Positions 2,803 through 40,244 of a stretch of DNA of 64,000 nucleotides are shown piece by piece. Source of the DNA: a virus; the IMG/VR virus record IMGVR_UViG_3300021338_000004, positions 1 to 64,000 of that record; one strand, given 5' to 3'. The notes below the pieces were generated by a model, which saw nothing but the letters and a program-made list of their open reading frames with translations, was not told the DNA's origin and ran no database searches. Position 1 is the stretch's first letter; each line of letters begins with the position of its first letter. A program made the position numbers and the translations under genes.

Positions 2803-3807
2803 CTATTCGTAATACCCGTACGTGGGTGCTGAAGGGAGGTCATCCACTCCTTCGGAAGGATCAAATTGACTCACCTTGGGCATACCCCCTGGGGTGCTTA
2901 CGATGGGGAGAGTTGTAGCATTAATGCCGACTGCGCTCTCCAACAATTTTTTAAAGCCGATCAAATCATCCGCATTTTCAGGGTTGGCCAGGCTATCCAG
3001 GATATCGTCTGGGATGAATAGCGCGCACTCCTTTGCCATGTCTGCAAGCAAGCCGGAACGACGACTGTCGCGACCCTGTGCAGCGTCAAGCAATGCCTTA
3101 GTTTCCTCAAGCTCAGCCATCACTTCTGCATTAATCAGCATCTGGCCTTCCAGGCCGGTCCGGTAGTGTTCGGCTTCATTCGCGCTGCTGGCATAAAAAG
3201 CCTGCAATGCACCGGTAGCCACGCCTTCGTCCACACCCAGGTCAACCATGCTATCGAGGACCAGCTGGGCGCGTTCAGCCTCACTGTCCTGTGCTGCACT
3301 GTCCAATACGTATGGACGATTAGAGGAGAACAGCGGCTGCCTTACATAGTCAAAGCCCGCCAAATCGCTGATCAACGTATTCCCTCTGTATACGCCGCCA
3401 TCACACGCCCAGGAAAAGCCCCCGATACCGCTTTCGAACAAGCTCAGCGTTTTTCGACCTTCCAGGTTGTCGGCGATCTCCTCAACATGCGTCAAATTGC
3501 CGTCATCATCAATATCAATTGCAGTACATACACATGCAGGAACCGCATCGACCAAGATATGCCCGCCACCAGGCGTTGGAACCATGACCTTTTCGTCCAG
3601 GTGCATTTTGCCGGCATGCTCACGCAGGTAATGCCCGAAATATCCCACCAACTCACGCTTGCGTAGTCTCTCTTGCACAGCGGGGCTCTGAATTACCTTG
3701 CGGACATTATCCACCAGGTAATTGCGTTGTTTGCTGGTGGTGTGTTCTCGCTGCTGATCCAGGATGTTAAATGTGACCTTGAGTGTTTTGAGTGGTTTAG
3801 GCTTCAT
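2803..3807 (-). CDS. pro: Prohead protease (P1 Pro-like)
   Basis: GYFGHYLRE, GGFSWAC and GFDYV motifs; adjacent to portal. Confidence 0.85.
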   Translation of the reverse strand: MKPKPLKTLKVTFNILDQQREHTTSKQRNYLVDNVRKVIQSPAVQERLRKRELVGYFGHYLREHAGKMHLDEKVMVPTPGGGHILVDAVPACVCTAIDIDDDGNLTHVEEIADNLEGRKTLSLFESGIGGFSWACDGGVYRGNTLISDLAGFDYVRQPLFSSNRPYVLDSAAQDSEAERAQLVLDSMVDLGVDEGVATGALQAFYASSANEAEHYRTGLEGQMLINAEVMAELEETKALLDAAQGRDSRRSGLLADMAKECALFIPDDILDSLANPENADDLIGFKKLLESAVGINATTLPIVSTPGGMPKVSQFDPSEGVDDLPSAPTYGYYE

Positions 3808-5500
3808 GTCGACCCTCCATAAGATCGGCCACTGTGTTGTAGATGATGGTTTTAATCTCTTCCCCTGCAGCGCTATCCATCACCTGATCGTCATCGTCCG
3901 TTTCAGGCTTATTGCGATTGAATAGCTGTTTAAAGTCATCCTCCTTCATCTTCAGCATTTCAGTGAAGATGTGGTTTGAAACGTCTGGCACAGAGAAATT
4001 CTTCCATTCGGGATCCAGTATTTGCATGAGCGTAACAACAGACGTTGCAAAGTTGATTCGGCTTTCGCGGGCGCTGGCTTCCTCTTGCTCAATGGCGGTA
4101 TTGAGGGAGTTGAAGAGAATCTTCCAGGGGCGCGTTTCAGGCGTGTAAATCTTGCCGTGCTTGGCGAATACATGGATCTCAATCAGGCGATGCATCGCGT
4201 TTAAGACAGCCTGGCGTATCAGATTTGCCTTAATGGCTGCCACAACAGACATTCGGAAAAAGCCGCCTTCGCCCAATCCGCCTGCCATATCGTCCGTGAA
4301 TCCGAGTAAGGATTTATCCACGCCTAGCGCAGATGCCAACCGGTTAACGTGAAAGTTAACGTCTTCAATTGCCGATACGTCTACAGATGAGTCTTCGGTA
4401 TGAATATCCAGGCGAGCAGATCCCGTAGACATGATCGGAATCATGTGTGTATTGACGGTATTTACGTACCCCTTACTGAGGGCGCGTTTTGCTGCCGCTT
4501 CGGCTTTTCGGCGAATCTGAGAGGCCAATGTGTTGTAGTACTTGGCCATGCTGGTCGGGTCTTCTTTGCCGATATTGACGCCAACAAACCGGTCTTTTTT
4601 GGATGCATTTCGGCGTGCCAGGTTAAGTGCAAGCACCGCCTCAATTAGATCTTTCCAGGGGTCATAGGCCGTTTGTATCAGCGAGGATCCGTAGTTCTGT
4701 GTTTCGATAGGCTCTTCGTTTTCAAAATCGTCACTATCAATATCGAAATCAACTGGGCGCATTCTGACAGGTTCTATATCGGTGCGAACGGTCCAGCGAG
4801 GTATTTTTACCGGGACAAATTTCCAAGGCTGCATCAAGGGCACCATGCCACGATCTCTGGCTTGCTGGTAGCGGCTGGTATATCCCGCCAGCACGCCAGC
4901 ACGCTCATATTCTTTGACGTGGCGGGGATGGGTGTAGAAATCATGCCGGATATTAACAATCCCTTTGCCCTGTTTTACGTATGGGCGAAGGTAGGTAACA
5001 CCGAGCTTTGCGGCTTGGTATCCCCAAGCGGCGGCCTGCGCGTTAAAGATGTCTTTGAATGTGTTTCGGATATCTTCCACTACCGGATTGCTCTCATCGC
5101 CAGTAGATTCGATGAACACAACTTCCCCGGAATCTGTTCGGGCGGACAGGGCGTGCTGAACCAGCATGTTGAGGGCAGAATCTATCGTGGGATCCCGGGA
5201 CATCACCTCTAACGTCAGGTAGCCCTCTATGCGACCTAACGGAAATCCTTCGATCAGTTTTTCTCTATCTTCTTTATCGTCAGGTGTTGCACCGCCTGAC
5301 AGGTCGTTCAGATGCGAAACAATCTTATCTAACGAACTGTCAGGGCCGAACAGGGAGTCGAAGTCGTTCGTTGCGGCCAAGTTTTCGGATGAAAGATCCT
5401 GGTCGTCGGGCGAAAACCCAGGGAACAGGCTTGAGAGCTTATCTATCCAGCCGCGTTTTTTGGTTTTTGCTTTTGATGTGTCTTCGGTCATTGGTCGCAC
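3797..5500 (-). CDS. prt: Portal protein (P1 Prt-like)
   Basis: YLTLEVMSRDPTIDSAL, ETQNYGSSL, GGLGEGGFFRMS. Confidence 0.9.
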   Translation of the reverse strand: MRPMTEDTSKAKTKKRGWIDKLSSLFPGFSPDDQDLSSENLAATNDFDSLFGPDSSLDKIVSHLNDLSGGATPDDKEDREKLIEGFPLGRIEGYLTLEVMSRDPTIDSALNMLVQHALSARTDSGEVVFIESTGDESNPVVEDIRNTFKDIFNAQAAAWGYQAAKLGVTYLRPYVKQGKGIVNIRHDFYTHPRHVKEYERAGVLAGYTSRYQQARDRGMVPLMQPWKFVPVKIPRWTVRTDIEPVRMRPVDFDIDSDDFENEEPIETQNYGSSLIQTAYDPWKDLIEAVLALNLARRNASKKDRFVGVNIGKEDPTSMAKYYNTLASQIRRKAEAAAKRALSKGYVNTVNTHMIPIMSTGSARLDIHTEDSSVDVSAIEDVNFHVNRLASALGVDKSLLGFTDDMAGGLGEGGFFRMSVVAAIKANLIRQAVLNAMHRLIEIHVFAKHGKIYTPETRPWKILFNSLNTAIEQEEASARESRINFATSVVTLMQILDPEWKNFSVPDVSNHIFTEMLKMKEDDFKQLFNRNKPETDDDDQVMDSAAGEEIKTIIYNTVADLMEGRHEA

Positions 5501-5669: not shown

Positions 5670-6101
5670 TTAATGGCTGAAAATATTGTTCACATCTTTT
5701 TGAATGGCAAGCTCTTCCATGGCTTCATCCACCAGCACGAACTCTATAGAACCATCTGAGGATTCGAGTATGTGTCTCTGATCCATCTGGGCGCCGCGGT
5801 CTAACTGTGCCTCGCTGTATGACCAGGCAGCCAGCAGGTTTAGTTCAACCTGCTCATACTGCATAGATTCAAGCCACTCTGCATCAACATGGTTTTCAAA
5901 CCAATCAAGTTCTGCATCGATAATGGCTTGCTTGAGCGGCCACCAGTAGGGTCCATACGCGCGATAGCGGAGCGGGTCGCGCTTCAGTAGCGTAACCACA
6001 CCATTTAAAAACTTACCCTTAAATTCTTCGATGGTCTGACTTTCGGTTGCTTCCTGCAGAAGCGGACTAAGCTGTTCCGGTGTGGGCTTTATGATACTCA
6101 T
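5670..6101 (-). CDS. ulx: Ulx-like protein (DarB packaging helper)
   Basis: IKPT..PLRYRAYGPYWWPLK..LLAAWSYS resembles P1 Ulx. Confidence 0.8.
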   Translation of the reverse strand: MSIIKPTPEQLSPLLQEATESQTIEEFKGKFLNGVVTLLKRDPLRYRAYGPYWWPLKQAIIDAELDWFENHVDAEWLESMQYEQVELNLLAAWSYSEAQLDRGAQMDQRHILESSDGSIEFVLVDEAMEELAIQKDVNNIFSH

Positions 6102-9557: not shown

Positions 9558-10148
9558 ATGGAGAGCGCTATGAAGCCACCACTGAACAGCTCAAGTCCTG
9601 CGGCAACGATCGCAATCGGTACGCTGACATCTGCAACGGAAATTAATAATAAGGAACCCTCTATGCCTGAAAAATACATTAGCTTTAACTACAACTGGCA
9701 GAGCGCTGACGTTGATATCGATCTCAATCGACACAGTGTACGAGCGCATTTGGCTGCGCTTATTCGCGGCTATGGGTCCAGCACAGAGAGCCTGGTGGTG
9801 GACTTTGTGAACGGCACCTTCCGCTTTATCAGCCAGTACGACAGCGTGCAGGCTGCATGGCAAAGACTCGATAGTCGTCAACAGGGATTTGTGGAGGCGT
9901 TTCGATCTCTAACGACTCAGCCCCACCTAGACGTACGCGCGCCAGATTTTCCGCAGACCTGGTTCAGAAGTGTAGTTGCCGCCAAGTTCCGCCAGCTTAG
10001 GGATCAAGCAGAAATAGACCAGCGGGTTGAGAAGCTACCTATCGAAGCTCAGGCTGCGCTGGCCGAACAGGCTGAACGGTTGATCCGAACAGAGGTTACC
10101 GCCGGCCCAGAAAAGGCTTGGACTATTCGCGTGTACGATGATGAGTAG
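9558..10148 (+). CDS. Hypothetical protein (true start probably 9663)
   Basis: ORF; AAGGA RBS before MPEKY. Confidence 0.6.
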   Translation: MESAMKPPLNSSSPAATIAIGTLTSATEINNKEPSMPEKYISFNYNWQSADVDIDLNRHSVRAHLAALIRGYGSSTESLVVDFVNGTFRFISQYDSVQAAWQRLDSRQQGFVEAFRSLTTQPHLDVRAPDFPQTWFRSVVAAKFRQLRDQAEIDQRVEKLPIEAQAALAEQAERLIRTEVTAGPEKAWTIRVYDDE

Positions 10149-10637: not shown

Positions 10638-13600
10638 TTAACTCAGAAGTTCGTAAAGGCGCTGCAGGTCAACATGCGCCGGCACATACCACCACGCCCC
10701 ACTAAAGCCCTCCTGATCACAACAGAACTGTGCGCCATACTGGCTTTTGAGCAGTTCCTTGTTTCTGAACAGTGTGCCCGACTTTCCATAGTCATCCTGC
10801 AGGAACAGATAACCGAATTTCGACAAGGTTTTACTACGTCGATAACGCCCGCGACCCGCGATGGTTAGTTCTGCGCTGTTATAGCGCACTGCCAGGCCAA
10901 GGCGCTTAAATGCCTCGCTAATATGGCCCGGAACCTCTTTGAAGTCCGGGTCGTTGCGCAAGTCCTCTTCAGTCTGTCGTATGCGTTCTGCTTTGGCTTC
11001 ATTTCTTCGCAGCTCTAGCTCTGCAAATACGCTATCCAGATACTGGCGAGTTACCAGAGAAATGTCCTGATGGTTATCTCCTACGGCATAGAGCATGTTT
11101 TCAATTTCATTCTGAATGTGCCGGCGCTCTTGAATAAAACGAGTGTACAACGCTTCATCACCGGTTGTGCCGTTGTACGTCTGCATTTCTGGCTCTTTGC
11201 TGAACGCATCCCAGTATGCCGCTGCTTTCTCGGTGATCTCAGCTGCAGTGAGCTTTGTCCCGTAGTTGGCGACTTCTTCGCGCCACATGCTGCCAAAGAA
11301 GACCGGCATAACCTTGGTGAGCGTCCAGATAGAAGGGTCGTTGCTGCGGGTCATGTCCAGATACATCAATGCCAGCTCTTTGCGTAGATTCTCATCACTG
11401 GGATCCGGCAATACCAACTGGTTTATATCATGAGCATCACCCTGAGCCGCAATCAGCTTGCCAGCACTATCACGGAACAGATACCCGCCATAAGACGCCA
11501 GCTTTATCTCGCTCTTATGGGTGATCAGTAAATCCTTGTCGTATTCAGCGAGATTCGCGTACTCCATAGGCGTAGACAACATCTGTCGTACCTGGATGTC
11601 TTCATCGCTTAGTTCAACCGGTATTAGGTCTTCCTGCAGCAATGCGATGTCTACGGACTGTTCATTACGCCCATAATGAAAACGCCCAATGACCGCCTCT
11701 ACGGTGATTTTGCGCTCTTCCAGATCAACAGACTTGATGCGCAAAATATTGGAGCTTCCATCTGCATTGCGGCGCTCAAGATACTGGCCTTCATGAACAA
11801 CCGATGCGGTGTTCCCGATGTTACGGGTGATCGCGTTCAATGGGTTGTTGATCAGCGCTTCACTGAATGGCAGTTCATTCTGACGGGCTTTGGCTTCCAG
11901 ATAGCCGCGGCGCTGCTTGATCTTGCTCTCCAGGTTGTCACGGATCTCATCCCACTTGGCATCCAAGGCGCTCAGGGCGCGCTCCGTCGTGCTTAGCGAG
12001 TACTCCGCATCCTCAACCTTCTTCTGCAGTTCTGCATCATCCGGTTCGTCCTTAGCCTTCTGACGAATGCGCTCCAAGCTTGCGCGGCGTCTCTGCTGGC
12101 GCTCAGTCAGGGTGGCGTGTTCAGCATCCTTGTCCGCTTCCAGGCTCTCCAGCTGACGCACAGCATAGCTGAGCTGACTGAATTGGTTGATGGTCGCGTT
12201 ATCCTGCTTACGGCGCTTCTCAGCCTGTTGCTGGGCCAGTTTCTCCAGGCGGCGGGCTTTCGCTGCTTCCGGGTCTGACTCCAGCATGTCGAGGTAGTCA
12301 TCAGCAGCGAAGGCATTCGCGTTGCTGGCTTCTACATCCTTGCCGTTCAGGATGTCGCGCATCCAGTTGGATTTTTGTTTCAGCAGGTTCAGACGGAACT
12401 CATCAAACGAGCCTTTGCCCATGTAGTAATACAGGGAGACACGTTTGGCGGTGTTGCCCTGGCGCACACCGCGACCGTTACGCTGCTGAATACTGGCTGG
12501 AGTCCAGGGCAAGGTCAGATGATGAATCGCGGTGGTGCCCTTCTGTAGGTTTACCCCCACTTCTGCTTTCTTGTTACAGATAACGATCTTGAGGCTACCA
12601 CGGTTGTAGGCGTCGGAGATCTTCTGCAGCTTCTTGCCCTTGGCCGCTTCACCGTTGATGATGCCGATCTCTTTGCGGTCGATCGGCAAGTGATGCACCA
12701 GGAGGCGCGCAATCTTCTCATGCTGGGATTTCTCCTCAGTGAAGATGATCTGCTTACCCCCGGATTCATGTTCAGACAGCAGCTTCTGCATCAGCTTCGC
12801 ATATTTTGGTGTCAGTGGGTGTGATACCTCAGAAAGCTCAATGCTCACGCCCGGCATACGAGAAACGATTGCATCCTCAAACGCTTCCGGCACCACCAGC
12901 GTCATAGGATCCGCCTGGGCATCTAAGGTGTAATCAAACTCAACCGTGGAGTTGACGTTCTTACCCTCTTCCTCATCGTAGATCTTAACCTTGACGGTCT
13001 TCGGCACCTCCGTCAGCAGCTTTTCCAGATTGGCGCGATACTTGGCCGGCACCCGGAAGGTCATCGTGTGGTTATACAGGTCCATGTCGGTGGTTACGCG
13101 GTCCATATCACGGATCACGCTGAACATGGATATCTGTTTTCCTTTCTGCTGACTGCGTGGTTTCGCGGCTTCTTTAGCGAGCTCACGCAGCTGTTCGTAC
13201 AGTTCCTCCTGCTCATCGCTCATGTCTACGAATTCATTGGATTCAGGCGCGTCTGGAAGCTCCAGACCCACGTCATCCGCATTGCGCAGCAGCGTATAGC
13301 GGTGGAACAGGTTGCGTAGACCATCCAGGTTCTGGAAGCCCACCAGGCCATCGGAGTCCACCAGCTCGCCCGATACTTTCTGGCGGGTAACGGTTTCCAC
13401 CTTGCCGAACACGCGCACAAAGTCGTCGGCGGTGTAGACGCCGTAACGTTCGAACTCCTCCACCGGAATTAGCAGGGACAGCATGTTGTAGATCTCCAAC
13501 GGACTATTGGTGATCGGTGTTGCGGTTAGTAGAACAGGGCCGCGACCGGCGTTCTGGTCTCGCAAGTGCGCCATCTTCATGGCCATGTCGCGTGCGCGCT

Positions 13601-16600
13601 GACTGGAGACCGGTGTCGGCAGATAGGCAATACGCTGAGACTCTTTGCCCGCTTCGTAGCTGTTCTTGAAGTGATGAGCTTCATCCACAATCACGGACTG
13701 GAAGTTCATGTCTTCGAAGTATGGGTATTCGCCTTTCTTATTGGTCCCTTCATCGCTGTAGGCCTGTCGTACCTTGTCGGTACGTTTCGCCTCGTTGTAG
13801 GACAGGCGATCACCGCCTTTGCCCATATCTACTTTTTCGCCGGCAATGGCCTCCACCGCATCGCGCTGGCTAATCAGGTCACGCTCAACCCATTTATCTG
13901 CGTATTTCTCTTTGGTGCGGGCGCGCATCGGAATCATGCCGAAGCGCTCCTGAGACATTACGATCTTGGATTTGGAGGTGTGCGGAATCTGGTGCATCTT
14001 GTCATAAATGGTCTGGGCATCATCTTCCACCAGAACATCTTGATACATCAGCTCGCCGGTAAACTTGTTTTTCTTCGGATTGCCCTCTTCATCCAATACA
14101 AGCTCGCGTTCGACGTTGCCATCCTTGCCGGCTTTCGGGCTAAAACCGATAAACAGCACGTCCTCCATGGTGCCAAGGAATGTATTGTGCTCGTGATACC
14201 AGTTACCCAGGACATTGTTTGGAACTACGGTCGCAGTGCGGTTCGCACGCCCCATCTGTTTGTTGTAGGTCGCCAGCGCGATCGCAGAGAAGGTTTTGCC
14301 CAGGCCAACGTCGTCAGCCAGGATGCCGCGCCCCTCTTCCGACATGCGACGGATACCTGCGTTTTGATACCCATGCGGTTTAATGGTGTCCGGGACGCCC
14401 TTCAGCTCCAATGAGTTCTCCTCATAGCTCATTGGAATGTAGCCATTGAACTTCTGGTTGTACTGCGCCTGCAGCTGTTCGGCGTCCTGGTGCTGCTGCA
14501 TGAAGATGGTGAACTCTTCTTCCAGCGCTTTGACCCGGTCTTTGTATTCCTGGATGTATTCCGCCTTGCTTGAAGTGATCGCGTTGCCGTTCAGGTAGCG
14601 ATTCATCTGCTTCAGGAACCCGGTTTCATCCATGTAGCCGTAGAATTCACCGAAAGGTGAGCTGGTATCATTGGTAAGCTCTTTCTCCCAGTATTTTTCG
14701 CCGGTATCGGGATCCTCGCGCTGTACGTCCTTTTCCACACCGTAGCGCAAGTGTCGATATCCCTTCTGCTCAAAAAACTCCAGGATGTATTTTCGATCAA
14801 ACCATTTTTGGTTCAGGCCAAACGAGATGTCTTCCAGGCTGGTGGAATTCACCTTAGCGCTGATCTCATCGATCTGCGCTTGCCATTTGGCTTTCAGGCG
14901 TGGATCGCTTTCCTGGCTCATCGCCTTGGCCAGTGCTGCTGCTTTCGGGAACACCTCTCCGGAACAGAAACGGTTCATCGGCATCATGCGACCGTCTGCG
15001 GTAATGGCTACACCTGGCTCCTCTGCCAAATCGCCCAAGCTCTTCAGTGCACGCGGCCCGCGGTATAGCGCTTGCACATCCTCCAGGGTGATTTCGTCAA
15101 TCCCCTCGCGAATGTACAGATGCTCAATGATCGATTGCAGCAGTGTATCGTCGTACTGCTGCTGGTCGCTGGCGGACTCTCCGGACAATAGAGCAGAAAA
15201 ATTACCGTCCTGGTCGATCGAATTCCGGAATACCCCCAGGTAGCGGGCGCTGTCGCCCTCTAGCTGCAGGTGGCGATTCTTCTTTGGGTCGCCATAGCGG
15301 TTGTATTCCGCTGCAACGAGCTCCTGCAAGGCAACCAGATCACCGGTATCCGCGTCACCTGTGCGCTCCTGGTTCTGGTATCGGTTGATCAGCGTGCCAA
15401 TCAATGCGCCGCGAAAAACCTGCTCTTGAGCGGATGGCGCTTGTTCAGCTGCGAGCGCGATTGCAGCCTTCTGCTGATCGGTGAAAAGGTCCGGCCAGCT
15501 ATCGCTTGCGGCTTTGGCCTGCTGATAGGTTAGGTTTAGCGTGGATTGATTATGTGACAACAGGCCTTTCAGTTGTTCAATGCTGTCAGCGCCGTAGGTT
15601 TTGACATCAATGCCGGTCGGATTGTCCAGGCCGTGATCCACTTCCTGCCAGTCGCCACCACTCATAATGTATTCGCGGTCGTTCATGTAGCGGCGATCGC
15701 CTTCCGCGTAGTAGCGGATGACCGGTTCTGCCGTGTCCAGCAGCGCCCAATCAATGCGGCTATCAAATTTACGTGCCAGCGCCTGTTTAAGGCCGGCTTC
15801 GGTGATCTCGTTGTTGATCACACGGTCCTGGTCGCGAAACTTGTTCGGATCTTTCGGGACGAACGTACCCTGGATGAATGGTCGCCCTTCCGGTGATTTG
15901 AACCATTCGCCTTGGATAAACGTGTCCCAAACCACATTGGCTGCTTTCAGGGTGTCGATTGACATATCCTGAATGCGTGCGATCGCATCGCGGGAATGCT
16001 TGCGCAGAATGATGACATCGGTAACGACATCAGTGCCTTGGCGACCAAACGTTTTAGATGGCAGCTTATGCGCGCCCAGGAATTCCGCCACCTTGCTTAG
16101 CTGGGTGCGCCAGCGCTCCCACTTCGCACCACGCCCGCTGACGATATTGATGGGCACTACCAGCGCAATCAAGCCGCCAGGGCGGACCTTATCCACCACA
16201 CGGCGTACAAAGTAGCGCTCAATCAGCTTCTCTTTCTTGTACAGCGGATCGTCATGGGCGGATGCGCCGCGGGCATCGCCAAACGGCACGTTGCCGATAA
16301 TGGCGTCAAAGGTGTCGTCTTGCGCATCGACCGCCAGCTTCTCAAAGCTCTGGTTAAGGATCTGATCTTCTGGATGAAGAATGCGGTTCACGCCTGCGGA
16401 CAGAGGATCGATCTCCGTGCCGGTGATGCGTACGCCGTCATTTTTGGTGGCACTGAACACGCCGGATCCGGTGGCCGGCTCCAGGACATTGCCGTTCTCA
16501 AAGCCGTTGGCTTTCAGCATATCCCACACACCTTCAGCAACGTGCGTTGGTGTGAAGTATTCATACTGGCTGTTAACGGTTAAGCCGCCGCGACCGGAGT

Positions 16601-18302
16601 ACTGAACCAGGGTTTTTCGATCTTCCAGTGTCAGTGAATCCGCATTCCAGTCGCTTGCTTTGATTCGCTCCACGATGGCCGCTGCTTGCGCGTTCAGGTG
16701 TTCGCGAGTCTTTACGCCACTTGCCTTGAGGCCGAACTCTATCGCCTCGTCAGCGGCTTCTGAGTCGCCCTGTGCCTGCAACTCGATCCCTGTGAATTCC
16801 TGGAGCGCTTGATCAATCTTGGCTTTGCTGGCGGGCAACCGAATGCCAGTTAGCTTAGTAAAGCCTCGTTTTAAGTGGGTATTGACCCCTTTAGGGTGCG
16901 CCAGCAGTGTCTGCAGCACGGTAAAGTCCCGTGCGGTGACCGCATCCACCAGCTGTTTAACGAGGCCTGTAGGCTCATCGACTGGCACGCCCTGTGGATA
17001 AATAATCGATTCTGCTTCAGCAGTCAGCTTTTCGATATCGACCGGCGGCGCAACTGCCTCCAGGAATGCCGCCTCCAGTTCATCTACGCTGGTGGCCGCC
17101 ATGATCTTCTGAATGGCAGGGCTTTCTTCGCCGGCACTGTCCAGAATGTCAGTGAGCTCAACATGCAGTTCCTGCATGGCTTCCGGGCTAATGCCTGACA
17201 GAAAATGGGAAAACGCATGCTGGTCAATGGCCGTTTCATCGCTCGCACTATCCAGCAGGGATACTTTGCCCGCACCGTCGCCATCCAGATAAAACTCTAC
17301 TTTGTCATCGCCTTGCTTGGATACCACGACATTGGTGCCCGCACCGTCATGCGTGTACTTGGATATTGTTTCCAGCATTTTGCGCAGCGCGTTATAACCG
17401 TCATGGTCATGCGTAGCCACTTTCAGCACCAGGTCGCGTACTTTTCCGGCACCATCCATCACGAACTGCAACGGGATTTCTACCTTGTGCTCTTTCGCGC
17501 GATGTTTGTTGCCGAACAGCAGGTAACGAAAGTCTTCGACCTTCATCGTGCTGATGGGCCCAAGGAAACGATCGTCGTCATAATGCGCCAGATAGGCGTC
17601 ACGCGCGGCCTGCTGGTTAGGGAAGCCGATGAACACCTTGTCTTCGTCAAAGTAGGCAGAGCATGCACAATGGTGTGGATGCTCATGGCAGTCAGGACAG
17701 GTGTCGTCTTTCCACGCTTTTACCTTCTCAATCGCATGCTGTTTGACGATGTACACATGCTTTGCACTGCGATCGGGGCCGATGTAGCAATCCACACCCT
17801 CGCCATCTTCGCCGATGGTGCCGCGGATATAGCCGTAATCGTTACGCATGGTAATAGACCAAGCATGACCGTCTGGGTCTTTGCCTTCACGCTTGGAGCC
17901 GGCCTTATTTTCGATGGATATCGGCATGCCCTGGAATTGATATCGATCCTGCAGACGGAAGTCTGTTTTTTTCTTCAGGTGAAGGTCGTTCATGGCGCTG
18001 TCTAGCAGCGGCTGATTGTTCAGGTCTTCCGGGTATTCCTGATGCTCGCCTTCCAGGATCTCTACGTCAAAGTCAGCGGATTTTTTGAGTGTGTAGTGAA
18101 GCGACATTGGCTCCATGTCTGGGTGTCGCGCGATGCGCCCCAGTGGGCTCATGCCGTTGCGGGTTAACTCATCTTCCAGGAAGGTCTTGGATAACTCATC
18201 ACCGTCCAAATGGACCGTACCACGACGGTCCCATGGTGCATCAATGGTGGCCGTCACAAATCCACCACCGTCATTAGTGGAGACTTTGAACTTATATGTC
18301 AT
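10638..18302 (-). CDS. darB: DarB-like antirestriction protein (N6-adenine MTase plus SNF2 helicase) with an N-terminal InPase-containing extension
   Basis: YFTP, VLEPATGSG, IGNVPFG; ILADDVGLGKT, VDEAHHFKN, TATPITNSPLE, QRNGRGVRQGN. Confidence 0.92.
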   Translation of the reverse strand: MTYKFKVSTNDGGGFVTATIDAPWDRRGTVHLDGDELSKTFLEDELTRNGMSPLGRIARHPDMEPMSLHYTLKKSADFDVEILEGEHQEYPEDLNNQPLLDSAMNDLHLKKKTDFRLQDRYQFQGMPISIENKAGSKREGKDPDGHAWSITMRNDYGYIRGTIGEDGEGVDCYIGPDRSAKHVYIVKQHAIEKVKAWKDDTCPDCHEHPHHCACSAYFDEDKVFIGFPNQQAARDAYLAHYDDDRFLGPISTMKVEDFRYLLFGNKHRAKEHKVEIPLQFVMDGAGKVRDLVLKVATHDHDGYNALRKMLETISKYTHDGAGTNVVVSKQGDDKVEFYLDGDGAGKVSLLDSASDETAIDQHAFSHFLSGISPEAMQELHVELTDILDSAGEESPAIQKIMAATSVDELEAAFLEAVAPPVDIEKLTAEAESIIYPQGVPVDEPTGLVKQLVDAVTARDFTVLQTLLAHPKGVNTHLKRGFTKLTGIRLPASKAKIDQALQEFTGIELQAQGDSEAADEAIEFGLKASGVKTREHLNAQAAAIVERIKASDWNADSLTLEDRKTLVQYSGRGGLTVNSQYEYFTPTHVAEGVWDMLKANGFENGNVLEPATGSGVFSATKNDGVRITGTEIDPLSAGVNRILHPEDQILNQSFEKLAVDAQDDTFDAIIGNVPFGDARGASAHDDPLYKKEKLIERYFVRRVVDKVRPGGLIALVVPINIVSGRGAKWERWRTQLSKVAEFLGAHKLPSKTFGRQGTDVVTDVIILRKHSRDAIARIQDMSIDTLKAANVVWDTFIQGEWFKSPEGRPFIQGTFVPKDPNKFRDQDRVINNEITEAGLKQALARKFDSRIDWALLDTAEPVIRYYAEGDRRYMNDREYIMSGGDWQEVDHGLDNPTGIDVKTYGADSIEQLKGLLSHNQSTLNLTYQQAKAASDSWPDLFTDQQKAAIALAAEQAPSAQEQVFRGALIGTLINRYQNQERTGDADTGDLVALQELVAAEYNRYGDPKKNRHLQLEGDSARYLGVFRNSIDQDGNFSALLSGESASDQQQYDDTLLQSIIEHLYIREGIDEITLEDVQALYRGPRALKSLGDLAEEPGVAITADGRMMPMNRFCSGEVFPKAAALAKAMSQESDPRLKAKWQAQIDEISAKVNSTSLEDISFGLNQKWFDRKYILEFFEQKGYRHLRYGVEKDVQREDPDTGEKYWEKELTNDTSSPFGEFYGYMDETGFLKQMNRYLNGNAITSSKAEYIQEYKDRVKALEEEFTIFMQQHQDAEQLQAQYNQKFNGYIPMSYEENSLELKGVPDTIKPHGYQNAGIRRMSEEGRGILADDVGLGKTFSAIALATYNKQMGRANRTATVVPNNVLGNWYHEHNTFLGTMEDVLFIGFSPKAGKDGNVERELVLDEEGNPKKNKFTGELMYQDVLVEDDAQTIYDKMHQIPHTSKSKIVMSQERFGMIPMRARTKEKYADKWVERDLISQRDAVEAIAGEKVDMGKGGDRLSYNEAKRTDKVRQAYSDEGTNKKGEYPYFEDMNFQSVIVDEAHHFKNSYEAGKESQRIAYLPTPVSSQRARDMAMKMAHLRDQNAGRGPVLLTATPITNSPLEIYNMLSLLIPVEEFERYGVYTADDFVRVFGKVETVTRQKVSGELVDSDGLVGFQNLDGLRNLFHRYTLLRNADDVGLELPDAPESNEFVDMSDEQEELYEQLRELAKEAAKPRSQQKGKQISMFSVIRDMDRVTTDMDLYNHTMTFRVPAKYRANLEKLLTEVPKTVKVKIYDEEEGKNVNSTVEFDYTLDAQADPMTLVVPEAFEDAIVSRMPGVSIELSEVSHPLTPKYAKLMQKLLSEHESGGKQIIFTEEKSQHEKIARLLVHHLPIDRKEIGIINGEAAKGKKLQKISDAYNRGSLKIVICNKKAEVGVNLQKGTTAIHHLTLPWTPASIQQRNGRGVRQGNTAKRVSLYYYMGKGSFDEFRLNLLKQKSNWMRDILNGKDVEASNANAFAADDYLDMLESDPEAAKARRLEKLAQQQAEKRRKQDNATINQFSQLSYAVRQLESLEADKDAEHATLTERQQRRRASLERIRQKAKDEPDDAELQKKVEDAEYSLSTTERALSALDAKWDEIRDNLESKIKQRRGYLEAKARQNELPFSEALINNPLNAITRNIGNTASVVHEGQYLERRNADGSSNILRIKSVDLEERKITVEAVIGRFHYGRNEQSVDIALLQEDLIPVELSDEDIQVRQMLSTPMEYANLAEYDKDLLITHKSEIKLASYGGYLFRDSAGKLIAAQGDAHDINQLVLPDPSDENLRKELALMYLDMTRSNDPSIWTLTKVMPVFFGSMWREEVANYGTKLTAAEITEKAAAYWDAFSKEPEMQTYNGTTGDEALYTRFIQERRHIQNEIENMLYAVGDNHQDISLVTRQYLDSVFAELELRRNEAKAERIRQTEEDLRNDPDFKEVPGHISEAFKRLGLAVRYNSAELTIAGRGRYRRSKTLSKFGYLFLQDDYGKSGTLFRNKELLKSQYGAQFCCDQEGFSGAWWYVPAHVDLQRLYELLS

Positions 18303-18317: not shown

Positions 18318-20069
18318 CTACTTCAGCCTGGGCAGCTCCTGTCCTTCGCGATACCACTCAGGGGCGCGTTGATGTAGGACTAGCATCTGTATCTGCTCGG
18401 CGGTTGATTGGATACCCTGCTCATTCAGCAATGACAGGTAGATGTAGGTTTTTGCCTGCACCTCTGTCTGGAAGTAGAAAAGATTTCGACCACCTTTTTC
18501 CACACCAAAAAAATGTTTGGCTGGAGTACCGTTGCGCTTTGCGATTTGTAGCGGGTAGATACTGTAGTCGTGTAGCTGCTGACGCTGAGCTTCAGCGTCT
18601 GTCCATGCCAGGGATGAAAGATGCTTGCGCGTAGCTTTGAGAAAGGTGTAGCCGCGAAGCTGTTCGCCGAACGTGCGCTGCTGGCGCTCGCGCTCAAGGC
18701 CTGACATTCCAGTCAGTAGACCGATCATCATATCGAACATTTCACGGTCGGCATTAAAGAGAGCGTACATTCGTTCCGGGTCGGTCAGCTGCTGCATCCC
18801 CATGGAGATGACCTCGGTGTAACCGCCGTCGTACACCTTGCCAACATAAGGGTCGAAGAACTTATCGCGAATGGCCTGCTCTGATGGTCGGTAGCGGCGA
18901 TTGTCCGTGATGTCCTGAAGCGGCTCAGGCTCGCCCGTCGTGCCCCTGGTTTTTACAAAGTCGTTGGATAACGCTTTGATTGCGGGGTCTGCTTCCAAAA
19001 GGTGTGACAATTCATGCCAAAGCACGGTTTTATCGAAGTCGCCATCAACCATGATCTCTGAACGACCGATATACGCATGCGCGCGCTCACTGCCATCTGA
19101 GCTGATTGTGACTTTATCCAAGCGGCCTTGGGTAAGCTGATAATACTCTGCTAGGTCACGACGTAACTGAGGTGCTTGATATCCCTGCCGGCGCAAACGG
19201 TTCATGGCTGTTGGAGATATCTGTTGCATAGATGCCCAGGCTTCGGCCTCTTCCTGGGATACCGGGGACTCCTGGATAAGTGCATCGTACAGTGGACGCA
19301 TCATCTTAACGCACAGAAAACGACGTTTGCGCGTCAGGTCTTTGATCTTTTGCCGGTCTTCGCTACTCAGAACAATCTGCTCATCAGTCCACTGGGAATA
19401 TACCGGGTCGATGTATTGATCATATAGATCTTCGATGTGCTGCTTCTGGTTGGAAAACTCTTGCTTGAGCGCTGAAAGCTTTGCCTTTCGGATATCAGGA
19501 GATAGATTCTGATCTTTAGCGATCGACTGAGATTCAGCCACCAGGGCCGTTAGCTGATCTTCTTTTTCATCAATTCCATGTTCGGACTTTAAGTGCTCAA
19601 GTGTCTTTAGGAACTCTGATTCATCGCGCTGTGCAGCATCTTTGATGGACTTGATGGTTGAGGTGGCATCCTGGATGCCATCGCTCAATAGTTTGGCTTC
19701 GTGATCATCCAGGAAGCGGGTGGTCTGGTTGCCGGCCGCAGTCACACCCAGACGCTTTACCGCCCCTGCTTCATCACTCAACAAAAAGCTTGTGGCAAGA
19801 CTGTGCAGGCTGAATCCCGATTCACGCTCAACCGCGCTATAGCGCTCCATCGGGTAATAACGCTGAAGGTCCGCTTTTAGGTCTGTTATTTCACGATGAG
19901 CGCTGGCCTTGTCCGTGATGGTGGCGCGGGGATTTAACAAAACATCAGCCGCCCGGGTGATGCGGGCGACCTGCTCTTCTTTACTCTGGCCCAGTATCCG
20001 AAAGAAGACGGCTTCTAAGCCGTCCATGGTGGTGACGGAATGCAGGGCTTTCAGCAATTCTTTATTCAT
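18318..20069 (-). CDS. ddrB: DdrB-like protein with zincin metallopeptidase (MPTase) domain
   Basis: RAHA..VLWHELSHLLE..YVGKVY..TEVISMGMQ; position after ddrA. Confidence 0.7.
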   Translation of the reverse strand: MNKELLKALHSVTTMDGLEAVFFRILGQSKEEQVARITRAADVLLNPRATITDKASAHREITDLKADLQRYYPMERYSAVERESGFSLHSLATSFLLSDEAGAVKRLGVTAAGNQTTRFLDDHEAKLLSDGIQDATSTIKSIKDAAQRDESEFLKTLEHLKSEHGIDEKEDQLTALVAESQSIAKDQNLSPDIRKAKLSALKQEFSNQKQHIEDLYDQYIDPVYSQWTDEQIVLSSEDRQKIKDLTRKRRFLCVKMMRPLYDALIQESPVSQEEAEAWASMQQISPTAMNRLRRQGYQAPQLRRDLAEYYQLTQGRLDKVTISSDGSERAHAYIGRSEIMVDGDFDKTVLWHELSHLLEADPAIKALSNDFVKTRGTTGEPEPLQDITDNRRYRPSEQAIRDKFFDPYVGKVYDGGYTEVISMGMQQLTDPERMYALFNADREMFDMMIGLLTGMSGLERERQQRTFGEQLRGYTFLKATRKHLSSLAWTDAEAQRQQLHDYSIYPLQIAKRNGTPAKHFFGVEKGGRNLFYFQTEVQAKTYIYLSLLNEQGIQSTAEQIQMLVLHQRAPEWYREGQELPRLK

Positions 20070-20376: not shown

Positions 20377-20380
<4 letters not shown>
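20072..20380 (-). CDS. ddrA: DdrA-like protein
   Basis: Size, position after darA, C-terminal LIEGKF..F..LDDVKE..Y. Confidence 0.65.
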
Positions 20381-22970
<2,590 letters not shown>

Positions 22971-22974
<4 letters not shown>

Positions 22975-23632: not shown

Positions 23633-24250
23633 TTACGCGCCCTTCAGGGCTTCCGGCCATTCCGCCTGCCAGTTGGCCGCAATGTCTTGTAGCTGTTCAA
23701 ACCAATCATCAGGAAGCTGATCGCTATCTGATAGCGATTTCAGATCATCAATCTTGTCTTCAGCCGCATGAAAGTCGCCCATGATGATGCTGGTGTATTC
23801 GGCGCTTCTACGAACCTTTTTGTTGACGCGATTTACCAGCTCTTCAAGTGAGATATTGCGGCGCTCTGACATGCCTTTAAGCGTGGTTACTTCCGCTGAT
23901 GCATCCTTCATATAGGCCTCTGCCTCCGATCTTTGCTGAGGCCAGGTCTCAATCATGTTTTGGGTATATCCGCGTTTAAGAATCGCCAGAGCACGCTCGG
24001 CAGTCGTGGAAATTTCGCCAAGCACACGGGCTACCTCAACATGAAATGAGCGAACCGGGGTCCAGGTTGAATCGCCATCAAACAAGTGAGCGGTTGGGTT
24101 TTCGGGAATGAGGCGATCGTCCACTTCGTAAACTTCATAGCCCGGGGCTTTTAGCATGGACTCACGAGGCTTGATGCGGCTAACCAGTTTCACTTGACTG
24201 GATGCTGAGTCGACTACTACAAATGAGAATGACTTTTCTGATGCCATCAT
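23633..24250 (-). CDS. Tail fibre assembly-type protein
   Basis: Follows the fibre gene; GYTQNMIETWPQQRSEAEAY..MSERRNISLEELV. Confidence 0.65.
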   Translation of the reverse strand: MMASEKSFSFVVVDSASSQVKLVSRIKPRESMLKAPGYEVYEVDDRLIPENPTAHLFDGDSTWTPVRSFHVEVARVLGEISTTAERALAILKRGYTQNMIETWPQQRSEAEAYMKDASAEVTTLKGMSERRNISLEELVNRVNKKVRRSAEYTSIIMGDFHAAEDKIDDLKSLSDSDQLPDDWFEQLQDIAANWQAEWPEALKGA

Positions 24251-35948: not shown

Positions 35949-36629
35949 TTACATGCCCCGCTTCTTGCGCACACCCATGGATTTGGCGCGTTTGCGACGG
36001 GCGGATGCTGAATGAGCTTTTTTGCGGGCCTTTTTAAGTGCTGCTTTTTGTGCCGCTGAAAGCTTTGGCTTGCGCAGCGTTTTACGCACCAGTGTTACCA
36101 CACCGTTGCGCACGACACGGATTTTGGCGCCATCCAGAATGGCGGATGCTTTCAGCGCAAAACGGGAAATAATCTCGTCATCGGCGCGCTCGCTGTCTTC
36201 GATACGTTTGCTCAGATAATTTGCCAGCTTTTCGCCTGCTTCTGAGTCTTCGTCATCGATAAACTGCTTCACATTCGCCTTATTGCCGCCCAGTTCCACC
36301 AATGCATCGGCAGTTGTGGCCAGAATGGCGTTATAGGCCTCTTCTTCTTCATCAGTGATCTCGCCATCACCATCCGCGTCAGCAAGGCCTGCCACCAGAC
36401 CGTTCAGCATGTTCCAGGAATAATCGTCGCCACCGATAAACTCCAGCGCCGCGGCCATACCCAGTGCGCGCTCCTGTTTGCTGCCATAGTCGTCTTCGGC
36501 GCTATCAAACAACGCTTCATCCATGGTGATTTCATCAGCAGAGACGCTTTTGTTTCCGGCGTCAGGGAATGGATTGCTTGCGGCGCTATCCAGCACCAAA
36601 GAACCACCAGTACCAAAAATATCTGTCAC
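35949..36629 (-). CDS. P1 gp21-like virion protein (acidic body, very basic C-terminus)
   Basis: Position after the sheath gene; RVVRNG..LSAAQKAALKKARKKAH..RAKSM. Confidence 0.75.
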   Translation of the reverse strand: MTDIFGTGGSLVLDSAASNPFPDAGNKSVSADEITMDEALFDSAEDDYGSKQERALGMAAALEFIGGDDYSWNMLNGLVAGLADADGDGEITDEEEEAYNAILATTADALVELGGNKANVKQFIDDEDSEAGEKLANYLSKRIEDSERADDEIISRFALKASAILDGAKIRVVRNGVVTLVRKTLRKPKLSAAQKAALKKARKKAHSASARRKRAKSMGVRKKRGM

Positions 36630-38669: not shown

Positions 38670-40244
38670 TTAGTCAACAATGCGCAACCAGGTAAACCAG
38701 GAACGCCCGTTTTTCGGGTGAAGATCACGGTACGCCAGGTCATACAGGGTGTTTTTGTGCTTCAGATCGGCCTGGATGCTGTGCGGGAAGTTGATCATGG
38801 TGATAGCATCACCGGCCACGAAGCCGGCATCACCGTGGCTTGCGCCTTTTGCGTAACAGAAAACGCCCCATGGATCATCCATGTATGGGTCTTCTTTGAA
38901 GACATAGCCGAATGCGGTGCCGACCAGGTGCGGCTGTGCGATGTGACGGTATCCAGGCACTGTTTTCACAAAAGGATGTCCCAGCGAGCGCAGCAGGGCA
39001 GCGGCTTTACCACCACATACCATGCCGACCATGCCTGATTTACGTGTTGCCAGCATCAGCTTCTGACTGATTTCCTGGAACTTCACGTTCAGGCTCTGAT
39101 AATGCTCGCGGTAATTCAGACCGCTCGGAATGCCACGGCTCCACTCTGTCTCGCCCTTGGCAAAGAAGTACATGGCCATAAGGCGATTGCGATCGCGCTC
39201 TGATGCCAGGACATTGCGAGATGCGCTCAGGTTCATCTGGCCCAAATTCATACCAAACTCTCGGCCCATGCTGAACTGCGCCTGGATTGTGGAGCTACAG
39301 CCCAGAGCAGATTCATGCGGGCGCAGAGTCCAGGACTCCATGCGGTGCTCGATACCCGGGATCAGCGACGGGTCGCTTTCAATATTGATGTCGAAACCAA
39401 AGTGCACGTCCAAGCCGGATGCGACACCGGTCGAAAAGTCCGTTGTGATACCGCCGTCTTCGTAGGCAACCGTGCCGGTCAGTACGACTGTGTCACCATC
39501 ACCATTTACATAACGGCCAAAAATACCGCCTTTACCGTCATCCGAGCCGACCAGTTCGCGGTCGACATACACCATGACCATATTCGGCTTAAATGGCATT
39601 TTCTTGCCCAGATCAGTGGTGCTGGACAGGGTGAACTGCTTTTTGGTGCCATCACCCGTGCCCACCAGGCGGCGCTGGTCCATGGTGCCGTACTGCTTAT
39701 TGAAGGTTTCGTCGATGACATCGCCTTTTTTCATGTCACCGAAGTCGGAATTGGCGTGGCGTGTCAGCGCAAACAGTTCGCTTTTGTCATAGTTACCCGG
39801 AATGGTGGTGACCATGTCGTTCGTAACCATCATCAGCGCTGTTGGCACAATCAGCGCGACGCGGTGGTCGCGTAGCTCAACACCTTCGCTGGTGGACAAC
39901 GGCGCACCTGCGGAGTCGAGGATTTTACCGAGCTTATTGTCGTCCTGTGGCGCCAGCTGGCTGCGCAGCTGTGAATGCATAGAGGACATCAACTCGCTCG
40001 ATGGCAGCTGGCCGTCATGTGCATCACGGTAGCTTTCCAGCGCGTTGATTGTGCCCAGGAGCAGAGATGGGCCTTTGTCGCCCGCGCCATCAAAAATGGT
40101 CTCTTTGCATTTGCTCTGCACGATGCCAGGCCATTCAGCGCGCGGCGCGCCATCTACAAGACCCAGCGTCTGCGCGTACATTGCCTGGGCGCTTTCCTGC
40201 AGAAATGCTGTGCGGTCCAGGTATTTAGAGATATCGGTTGTCAT
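38670..40244 (-). CDS. Major capsid protein (P1 gp23-like)
   Basis: DINIESDPSLIPGIEHRM, REFGMNL, AGFVAGDA, DLHPKNG. Confidence 0.9.
   Translation of the reverse strand: MTTDISKYLDRTAFLQESAQAMYAQTLGLVDGAPRAEWPGIVQSKCKETIFDGAGDKGPSLLLGTINALESYRDAHDGQLPSSELMSSMHSQLRSQLAPQDDNKLGKILDSAGAPLSTSEGVELRDHRVALIVPTALMMVTNDMVTTIPGNYDKSELFALTRHANSDFGDMKKGDVIDETFNKQYGTMDQRRLVGTGDGTKKQFTLSSTTDLGKKMPFKPNMVMVYVDRELVGSDDGKGGIFGRYVNGDGDTVVLTGTVAYEDGGITTDFSTGVASGLDVHFGFDINIESDPSLIPGIEHRMESWTLRPHESALGCSSTIQAQFSMGREFGMNLGQMNLSASRNVLASERDRNRLMAMYFFAKGETEWSRGIPSGLNYREHYQSLNVKFQEISQKLMLATRKSGMVGMVCGGKAAALLRSLGHPFVKTVPGYRHIAQPHLVGTAFGYVFKEDPYMDDPWGVFCYAKGASHGDAGFVAGDAITMINFPHSIQADLKHKNTLYDLAYRDLHPKNGRSWFTWLRIVD

Follow-up and report, generated by a model that had tools for sequence, protein, structure and literature searches.

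In phage T4 the internal proteins and Alt carry a capsid-targeting sequence that is removed by the prohead protease gp21, an arrangement on which the T4 PEPP packaging system is based, and the freed protein is ejected with the DNA. Cutting at several motif copies, the T4 and SPN3US/phiKZ proteases take off N-terminal propeptides that are 20-254 aa long (PMC10052503). Polyvalent proteins, described by Iyer, Burroughs, Anand, de Souza and Aravind in 2017, are packaged and delivered on invasion, and were proposed to be processed into units (PMC5512222). In phage P1, DarB is reported in virions at ~250 kDa and information at its N-terminus directs packaging (Gonzales et al. 2022, PMC9024508); there is also a proposal to use P1 for protein delivery by way of this N-terminus. 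Here we analyse the darB locus of the metagenomic IMG/VR virus record IMGVR_UViG_3300021338_000004, a 77,175-bp sequence with direct terminal repeats, whose first 64 kb form the window (the whole stretch of DNA presented, 64,000 nucleotides). The element is a P1-type phage-plasmid, and its DarB is probably a polyprotein, predicted to be cut by the prohead protease Pro into a leader, an InPase, two orphan pieces and the core. The whole case is one of sequence comparison, anchored on two experimental facts from P1.

An AAGGAA ribosome-binding site lies 9 nt before the darB ATG, which is itself 13 nt past the ddrB stop. The Pfam matches of DarB are InPase, Eco57I-type methylase, SNF2 (SNF2-rel_dom) and Helicase_C; its N6-adenine methylase and SNF2-type helicase core is collinear with P1 DarB, to which the protein is 35% identical over 1950 aa (35-39% across aa 520-2385). 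The pattern [LIVM][LIVM]D[SG]A occurs in it four times, with no fifth copy, as LLDSA, VMDGA, LLDSA and ILDSA. An earlier sequence-only reading of this DNA had placed the motifs at aa 99, 281, 349 and 386, and these positions proved exact. It had also counted about 390 extra residues before the usual DarB start, which is right for the part upstream of the last motif but not relative to P1 DarB, whose residue ~33 aligns with window residue ~522, so that the extension is nearer 490 aa. The parts of the gene are as follows (↓ marks the predicted cut).

10638..18302, minus strand: darB ORF (P0001), 2554-aa precursor in an uninterrupted frame
18000..18302, minus strand: module 1, N-terminal domain (aa 1-101, 11.5 kDa), pLDDT >90, proposed removable leader or targeting domain
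17994..18008, minus strand: site 1, LLD↓SA (aa 99-103), within a linker of pLDDT <50 (95-119)
17454..17999, minus strand: module 2, InPase (aa 102-283, 21 kDa), PF18823 from aa 118 to ~270
17448..17462, minus strand: site 2, VMD↓GA (aa 281-285), within a linker of pLDDT <50 (280-291)
17250..17453, minus strand: module 3 (aa 284-351, 7.3 kDa), orphan, pLDDT 50-62
17244..17258, minus strand: site 3, LLD↓SA (aa 349-353), within a low-confidence segment (339-368)
17139..17249, minus strand: module 4 (aa 352-388), orphan acidic peptide of 4.1 kDa
17133..17147, minus strand: site 4, ILD↓SA (aa 386-390), predicted mature N-terminus of the DarB core
17058..17120, minus strand: conserved post-site helix PAIQKIMAATSVDELEAAFLE (aa 395-415), common to the DdrB N-terminus
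10638..17138, minus strand: DarB core (aa 389-2554, 245 kDa), methylase and SNF2 helicase, from Pfam and identity to P1 DarB

Shuffling of the first 390 aa gave a mean of 0.024 matches, with P(≥2) = 3e-4 and none of 20,000 shuffles containing four; all four motifs fall inside the first 15% of DarB (p ~5e-4). Because shuffles almost never reproduce them, the four motifs did not arise by chance. In the AlphaFold model of DarB aa 1-420, two domains are confidently predicted (aa 1-94 and aa 120-265, both pLDDT >90), and sites 1 and 2 lie in linkers of pLDDT <50 between domains of pLDDT >90, where they would be accessible.

We scanned for the motif in the non-overlapping gene set of the whole 77-kb genome. 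Fifteen copies were found, against 1.3 expected from shuffles (shuffle maximum 5), and 14 of them belong to head or Dar proteins, or to candidates for such on grounds of homology or position: four in DarB, three each in the major capsid protein (MCP) and the P1 gp21 homologue, and one each in Pro, the portal, DarA and a 205-aa ORF at the head of the dar operon. The remaining copy is in ParA. Four of these genes have P1 counterparts with which their sites can be aligned.

38670..40244, minus strand: MCP, P1 gp23 homologue, with LVD↓GA (29), IFD↓GA (50) and ILD↓SA (108, nt 39909-39923)
20377..22974, minus strand: darA homologue, Pfam DarA_N, with VMD↓SA at aa 47 (nt 22822-22836) and ILD↓AV at aa 65 (nt 22768-22782)
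2803..3807, minus strand: homologue of pro (prohead protease); VLD↓SA at aa 167 (nt 3295-3309), followed by less strict copies
3797..5500, minus strand: portal, with C-terminal VMD↓SA at aa 540 (nt 3869-3883)

The third MCP copy, KILD↓SAG, matches P1 gp23 AMLE120↓S121VAAEM column for column, and the E120-S121 bond was mapped by Edman degradation of the mature P1 capsid protein (PMC9024508). The same column reads ILD↓SA, VLD↓SA and ILD↓ST in three related phages. The window MCP site thus corresponds to the mapped P1 maturation site, and the DarB sites share its consensus. ILD↓AV of the window DarA aligns with LLE68↓A69 of P1 DarA, whose residues 1-69 are missing from the cryo-EM map and from which a ~9-kDa fragment is known to be removed (PMC12810830), as would be expected of a cut site. 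P1 Pro has MFE↓SA at the position aligned with VLD↓SA of the window Pro, and P1 portal has ILE↓SV near its C-terminus (aa 557-561), corresponding to the window portal copy. These alignments with P1 make it almost certain that the DarB motif is the site cleaved in head maturation by this phage and its group, with the cut predicted after the acidic residue. The window Pro is 32% identical to P1 Pro (E 2e-28), and the His and Ser in GYFGH and GGFSWA are kept between the two.

Two side observations concern these genes. A protease-type site lies 12-28 residues from the portal C-terminus in the window, P1 and the related loci L013, L016, L019 and L039, and its conservation predicts C-terminal trimming of the portal. 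P1 pro is a head-processing gene adjoining the portal, and its label 'tail fiber protein' (RefSeq for NC_005856 19014-20033; PHROG 1801) looks like a misannotation that has been propagated.

Phages differ in which acidic residue precedes the cut, but within each phage it is nearly uniform. In the window, L011, L014 and L019 it is Asp in MCP, portal, Pro, DarA and the DarB-locus proteins, the single exception being one Glu site in the L019 Pro, whereas in L013, L016, L039 and P1 the same set of proteins uses Glu. In all cases examined the sites of the DarB extension carry the acidic residue of their own phage. Such uniformity is expected if one protease recognises all the sites, and would not be expected of a generic linker. 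The proposal that the DarB motifs are sites of the Pro type is supported by this co-variation, by the match of the MCP copy to the gp23 cut and by the copies in Pro, portal and DarA.

The proteins closest to those of the window come from Vibrio and Xenorhabdus elements of 67-82 kb (~52% DarB identity), in which DarB has the order N-domain, VFD↓SA or IFD↓SA, InPase, FVHD(H or S)A-VLD↓SA, core. Two adjacent motifs (FVHDHA-VLDSA) stand there in place of window modules 3 and 4, each of which closes with a motif of its own. Counterparts of site 1 in relatives are VFD↓SA, IFD↓SA, IFE↓SA, VLE↓SA and MVAE↓SA; homologues of site 2, which close the InPase module, are FVHD↓SA, FVSE↓SA, FVGE↓S and FVTE↓AA; and site 4 aligns with VLD↓SA or VFD↓RA of Vibrio-type DarB. 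In L013 the N-domain and InPase form a separate 307-aa gene that stops 5-7 residues past the motif (FVGE↓S...), and DarB is a separate gene starting MLDTTLVENDLVLE↓RA. The L016 cassette is one 612-aa gene comprising the N-domain, InPase and X, an uncharacterised module of ~300 aa. L019 has InPase and X as one gene, with InPase leading a protein of 956 aa, and its N-domain is fused straight to DarB, followed by ILD↓RN; upstream of its InPase gene, where the N-domain was sought, solely an unrelated small ORF was found. Separately encoded DarB cores have a short leader ending MILE↓RA, LIVE↓RA, LVLE↓RA or LILE↓RA, and then the conserved helix.

The boundaries are plainest in P0010, a 1768-aa polyvalent protein of another P1-like phage (L039), whose gene has ddrB on one side and a separately encoded darB core on the other. 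All five of its [DE]SA tripeptides fit the pattern hydrophobic-x-Glu↓Ser-Ala, and a sixth site, FVTE↓AA, closes its InPase. These sites lie behind the N-domain and behind a 145-aa module, in front of ART-PolyVal and of InPase, and behind PBECR1, and the six together separate N-domain, ddrB-ParB, ART, InPase and PBECR1. The L039 portal and Pro sites are IME↓SA, VLE↓SA and IFE↓SA. Modules are thus fused, split and swapped at the motifs, and therefore the module boundaries of the homologues coincide with them, which was the outcome of an alignment test proposed earlier and run here.

In searches for related loci a single protein as query returned none, and an alignment as query did return loci; megablast of the region against phage and plasmid collections gave 0 matches and thus no close DNA relative there. 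Between ddrA and the InPase gene of L019, at ~9610-9880 on the plus strand, we observed an unannotated ORF of ~87 aa with the start MDSVMTVSNEEYAKDGQRLKAALD↓SAG, that is, a short leader and a site. Unrelated genes occur between the cassette and the darB core, namely two ORFs of unknown function in L016 (12155-13299, plus strand) and a DUF1353 protein in L013 (10456-11010, plus strand); the interval is one that accepts insertions.

The last DarB motif is followed by SAGEESPAIQKIMAATSVDELEAAFLE, which had been noted to resemble the DdrB N-terminus, MNKELLKALHSVTTMDGLEAVFF. The two segments do not align in pairwise BLASTP, and the resemblance is upheld by profile comparison alone: hhalign with seven-phage profiles on each side gave a probability of 93.7% (E 2e-7, score 31.4), against a background in which 155 other DarB windows scored ≤14.6. 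A hidden Markov model (HMM) of the helix finds, outside its training set, the L039 and L040 DarB cores directly after MILE↓RA and LIVE↓RA; among such proteins it also finds the L040 DdrB N-terminus and L019 DarB after the N-domain and, more weakly, the inside of P0010. By these profile comparisons the post-site helix is a real shared feature of DarB and DdrB.

Module 1 is found at residues 1-100 in 10 of 10 profile-recovered proteins and forms the N-terminus of four architectures, whether fused to DarB or not. Since it always occupies the extreme N-terminus of the cassette, we read it as a probable removable leader rather than an effector. Its predicted fold is beta-beta-beta-alpha...alpha-beta. 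Foldseek against the PDB gave nothing at E ≤0.001, a wide VIA-align search gave a best Z of 4.3 and no convincing structural relative, and BFVD gave weak matches to uncharacterised phage proteins of ~90 aa (E 1.8e-3, TM ~0.6). The suggestion that this ~100-aa domain might be Hxr-like (an Hxr/Xre-type repressor) was rejected, as BLASTP against P1 Hxr gave E 0.18 over 20 aa, the predicted fold has no helix-turn-helix and there is no Pfam match; the idea probably arose because hxr follows ddrB in P1.

The second module had been called an InPase domain, and this is a solid assignment (PF18823, 124.9 bits against a cut-off of 26.8, E 2.5e-36). All matches listed by Foldseek in the PDB are family I pyrophosphatases (probability ≤0.99, E 5e-3, TM 0.41 on the target). 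Across 20 InPase sequences, residues E131, K133, R138, Y156, D166, D171, D219, E220 and K222 show little or no variation; comparison with E. coli pyrophosphatase leads us to take them as active-site residues. The model is consistent with a pyrophosphatase fold with conserved acidic residues. As a side observation, this InPase has a Cys/His insert, CPDCHEHPHHCAC (aa 202-214, nt 17661-17699, minus strand), that every InPase copy of the ddrB-darB locus clade carries, that is lacking from the other phage InPase domains aligned and that may be a zinc-binding loop.

Modules 3 and 4 were modelled at pLDDT 36-62, and module 3 is absent from the Vibrio and Xenorhabdus homologues. Vibrio and Xenorhabdus DarB also lack an insert of ~100 aa (aa 414-510, window 16773-17063, minus strand), which in the window protein follows the conserved helix and precedes the methylase region. 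No homologue of modules 3 and 4 or of the insert was found among 1.84 billion representative proteins; the sole match, to a cadherin-like repeat protein (E 1.4e-4), was judged compositional and spurious. Nor could a local duplication be made the origin of modules 3 and 4, where there is just a 13-nt exact repeat (DGAG) and no larger one. These modules and the insert may be spacers or very young cargo, and the earlier view of the ~65-aa piece as an effector is unsupported, given the missing homologues and the low-confidence fold.

From these data we propose the following mechanism. The DarB precursor would enter the procapsid with module 1 as a removable leader that brings the cassette in. The Pro homologue (2803-3807) would then cut after D101, D283, D351 and D388, giving pieces of 11.5, 21.0, 7.3 and 4.1 kDa and a core of 244.7 kDa, whose new N-terminus would bear the helix also found at the DdrB N-terminus. 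The folded pieces contain no internal sites; like the internal proteins of T4, they would be retained in the head and ejected along with the DNA. The sequence-only reading had seen here a modular cassette of several effectors that enter the capsid on DarB, are cut free by Pro and are injected. Its maturation-type motifs, their coincidence with module boundaries and the shared helix are supported, but the Hxr-like domain, the ~65-aa effector and the ride on DarB are not: fusion to DarB is not needed, since the N-domain heads the cassette whether fused or separate.

Several points weigh against cleavage and delivery as proposed. P1 DarB has no such extension or site, and in the P1 genome the strict motif is weakly enriched (6 against 2.7; 17 against 9.2 for a looser pattern). 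The window Pro had no match in Pfam and PDB sequence searches. Site 4 lies at the end of a predicted helix (of low confidence), in some homologues the residues that follow the cut are degenerate (VIFD↓NT, VVMD↓SN, FVHD↓HA), modules 3 and 4 are orphans with low-confidence folds, and the ParA copy of the motif (FIDGA) is probably a chance occurrence. The post-site helix is not to be equated with the P1 targeting signal, because its HMM detects neither the P1 DarB nor the P1 DdrB N-terminus and packaging still occurs when P1 DarB residues 11-30 are deleted (PMC9024508). Finally, once a prohead protease has released a propeptide, that propeptide is generally expected to exit the head (PMC10052503).

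This last expectation leads to a different account of the same cuts, in which the whole 388-aa region would be a multi-cut targeting or scaffolding propeptide that is lost after cleavage by Pro, with no effectors delivered. Modules 1 and 2 are, however, compact, without internal sites and as large as the T4 internal proteins that are retained in the head. Loss would also suit the InPase poorly, as it belongs to a conserved enzyme family with near-invariant catalytic-type residues, widespread in phage polyvalent proteins and also fused to portal or minor head proteins (PMC5512222). The precedent of SPN3US, where the propeptides cut away measure 111-254 aa, bear several motif copies and are for the most part lost (PMC10052503), together with the missing homologues and poor folds of modules 3 and 4 and the constant N-terminal place of module 1, like that of a targeting element, gives the account some force. 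We consider it unlikely for the region as a whole, although it may hold for modules 1, 3 and 4.

Other explanations question the enzyme, the cuts or the precursor itself. The zincin-like metallopeptidase of the adjacent DdrB, rather than Pro, might cut DarB: DdrB has HExxH at aa 352-356, P1 DdrB is annotated as a possible metallopeptidase, and a peptidase of this kind was proposed as the processing enzyme of polyvalent proteins (PMC5512222). Yet the motif is also present at the MCP maturation site, at the portal C-terminus and in Pro beyond its conserved His/Ser part, and the processing of P1 gp23 and DarA is attributed to Pro (PMC9024508, PMC12810830); because the same site marks classical prohead-protease substrates, cleavage by DdrB is very improbable. 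In DarB itself Pfam found no peptidase family, and thus no zincin-like metallopeptidase domain, the HExxH being in the neighbouring DdrB. If the motifs were instead uncleaved linkers or recombination junctions, DarB would be intact in the virion, as P1 DarB is packaged uncleaved (PMC9024508). That reading leaves unexplained the match to the MCP maturation site, the Asp/Glu co-variation with the other head substrates of each phage and the motif-ending short leaders of separately encoded DarB cores, and appears quite improbable. Exceedingly improbable, lastly, is translation of DarB from an internal start near aa 391-401, with the upstream part unmade or a separate product. There is an in-frame ATG after site 4 (Met401), and the cassette and DarB are separate genes in some relatives, but the frame is open and without a stop, the upstream part is conserved as protein (as the InPase match shows), a good ribosome-binding site precedes the first ATG while no clear Shine-Dalgarno sequence precedes Met401, and the region contains no promoter-like site on the minus strand.

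Cleavage of DarB by Pro, with the InPase among the pieces released, thus remains the reading that we prefer. More tentatively, and taken as a whole somewhat doubtful, a general reading of the locus can be put forward. The interval from ddrB to the darB core of P1-family phages would be a general cargo-loading locus, where any domain placed behind the ~100-aa leader and flanked by sites would reach the procapsid, be freed by Pro and be injected. The prohead protease, not a metallopeptidase, would resolve phage polyvalent proteins; the Asp or Glu before the cut would co-evolve with the protease of each phage; and the post-site helix would be the label by which large cargo (DarB, DdrB, ART modules) is docked or retained.

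The surroundings of darB are those of a P1-type phage, in the company of the Dar genes. P1 homologues were found for 25 ORFs, including portal, Pro, DarB, DdrB, DarA, Hdf, Ulx, sheath, gp21, gp23 and terminase, and the element encodes ParA and ParB. Upstream of darB lie hdf, darA, ddrA and, directly adjacent, ddrB; a ulx homologue is at 5670-6101 and prt and pro are at 2803-5500. Three further genes were recorded.

18318..20069, minus strand: ddrB homologue, 583 aa, with the N-terminal helix motif and a HELSH zincin motif at aa 352-356 (nt 19002-19016)
23633..24250, minus strand: 205-aa ORF just upstream of hdf, candidate for an internal head protein; its leader of 14 aa ends VVD↓SA
35949..36629, minus strand: P1 gp21 homologue, with VLD↓SA (12), LFD↓SA (40) and ILD↓GA (164)

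The window DdrB is shorter than P1 DdrB (583 against 995 aa), retains HExxH as HELSH and can be aligned with P1 DdrB in its own C-terminal part alone. The window DarA contains a perfect (Glu-Pro)12 at aa 267-290 (window 22105-22176, minus strand), followed by ~500 aa that are absent from P1 DarA and include a DUF6908 domain (aa 645-755). The 205-aa ORF has no P1 homologue and solely PHROG matches of unknown function, and its leader resembles a T4-type targeting peptide. The gp21 homologue is annotated 'baseplate or tail tube'; its middle is acidic and its C-terminus very basic, and P1 gp21 (P1 54592-55407) carries LME↓SA at aa 28. Given these features, the gp21 homologue may be cut by Pro and may bind DNA inside the head instead of being part of the tail.

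If the sites are used as predicted, the P1-family head protease has a testable consensus, hydrophobic-hydrophobic-Asp/Glu↓Ser/Ala/Gly/Arg-Ala, where one site has been mapped so far (gp23 E120↓S121). It predicts the unmapped cut in P1 DarA (LLE68↓A69) and cuts in portal, Pro and gp21. It also offers a mechanism by which the effector strings of polyvalent proteins could be resolved into units whose boundaries are visible in the sequence. A natural multi-cargo cassette with predicted release sites could serve as a model for modular loading in laboratory phage-bacterium systems.

Compared with the T4 internal proteins, the locus is alike in that an N-terminal element would bring a non-structural protein into the procapsid and in a cut, predicted here, after an acidic residue behind hydrophobic ones (Leu/Ile-x-Glu in T4, hydrophobic-hydrophobic-Asp/Glu here). 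It differs in scale: T4 uses one peptide of ~10 aa for one cargo, whereas here a folded domain of ~100 aa, four sites and up to five products are predicted, and the cargo includes a 245-kDa methylase-helicase. The DarB extension is also unlike a T4-type capsid-targeting sequence in that its first site is at aa 101, after a folded domain; T4-like short leaders, of 14 aa, are present in the same genome on two other ORFs (23633-24250 and 35949-36629). With phiKZ, 201phi2-1 and SPN3US (whose protease is gp245) the locus shares long N-terminal regions with several motif copies and a preference for Ser next to the cut; in those phages the protease also trims its own C-terminal part and the portal is cut (PMC10052503), as the Pro and portal sites would predict here. 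The parts removed in those phages have no recognisable enzyme domains and are mostly lost, whereas a predicted piece in the window is a conserved InPase enzyme, and the modules are exchangeable and encoded as separate genes in relatives.

DarB is polyvalent by the published definition, with InPase, methylase and helicase in one ORF in a packaging or late context, and giants of the DarB type combine effectors such as InPase, methylase, helicase, ART, ParB and PBECR (PMC5512222). That work proposes a zincin-like metallopeptidase and defines no site, whereas the sites defined here lie between the Pfam domains of P0010 and match the prohead-protease site of the MCP. P1 has an orthologous DarB core and the same set of Dar genes, but its DarB starts ~490 residues later and has no InPase, N-domain or comparably placed motif, and window darB directly follows ddrB, unlike P1. 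The closest relatives are the Vibrio plasmid prophages of the pVv01/p0908 type and the Xenorhabdus bakwenae SF857 plasmid, which as a type have the N-domain, InPase and DarB fused; in them two adjacent motifs take the place of modules 3 and 4, and the ~100-aa insert is missing. Removal of N-terminal targeting regions by prohead proteases (T4, phiKZ, SPN3US), processing of polyvalent proteins into units (PMC5512222) and the N-terminal packaging signal of DarB (PMC9024508) are already published. What the present comparison adds is a putative defined site for the P1-family protease, the placing of this site at the module boundaries of polyvalent proteins of the DarB locus, its co-variation with the phage and, in the window element, a predicted DarB polyprotein of five products.

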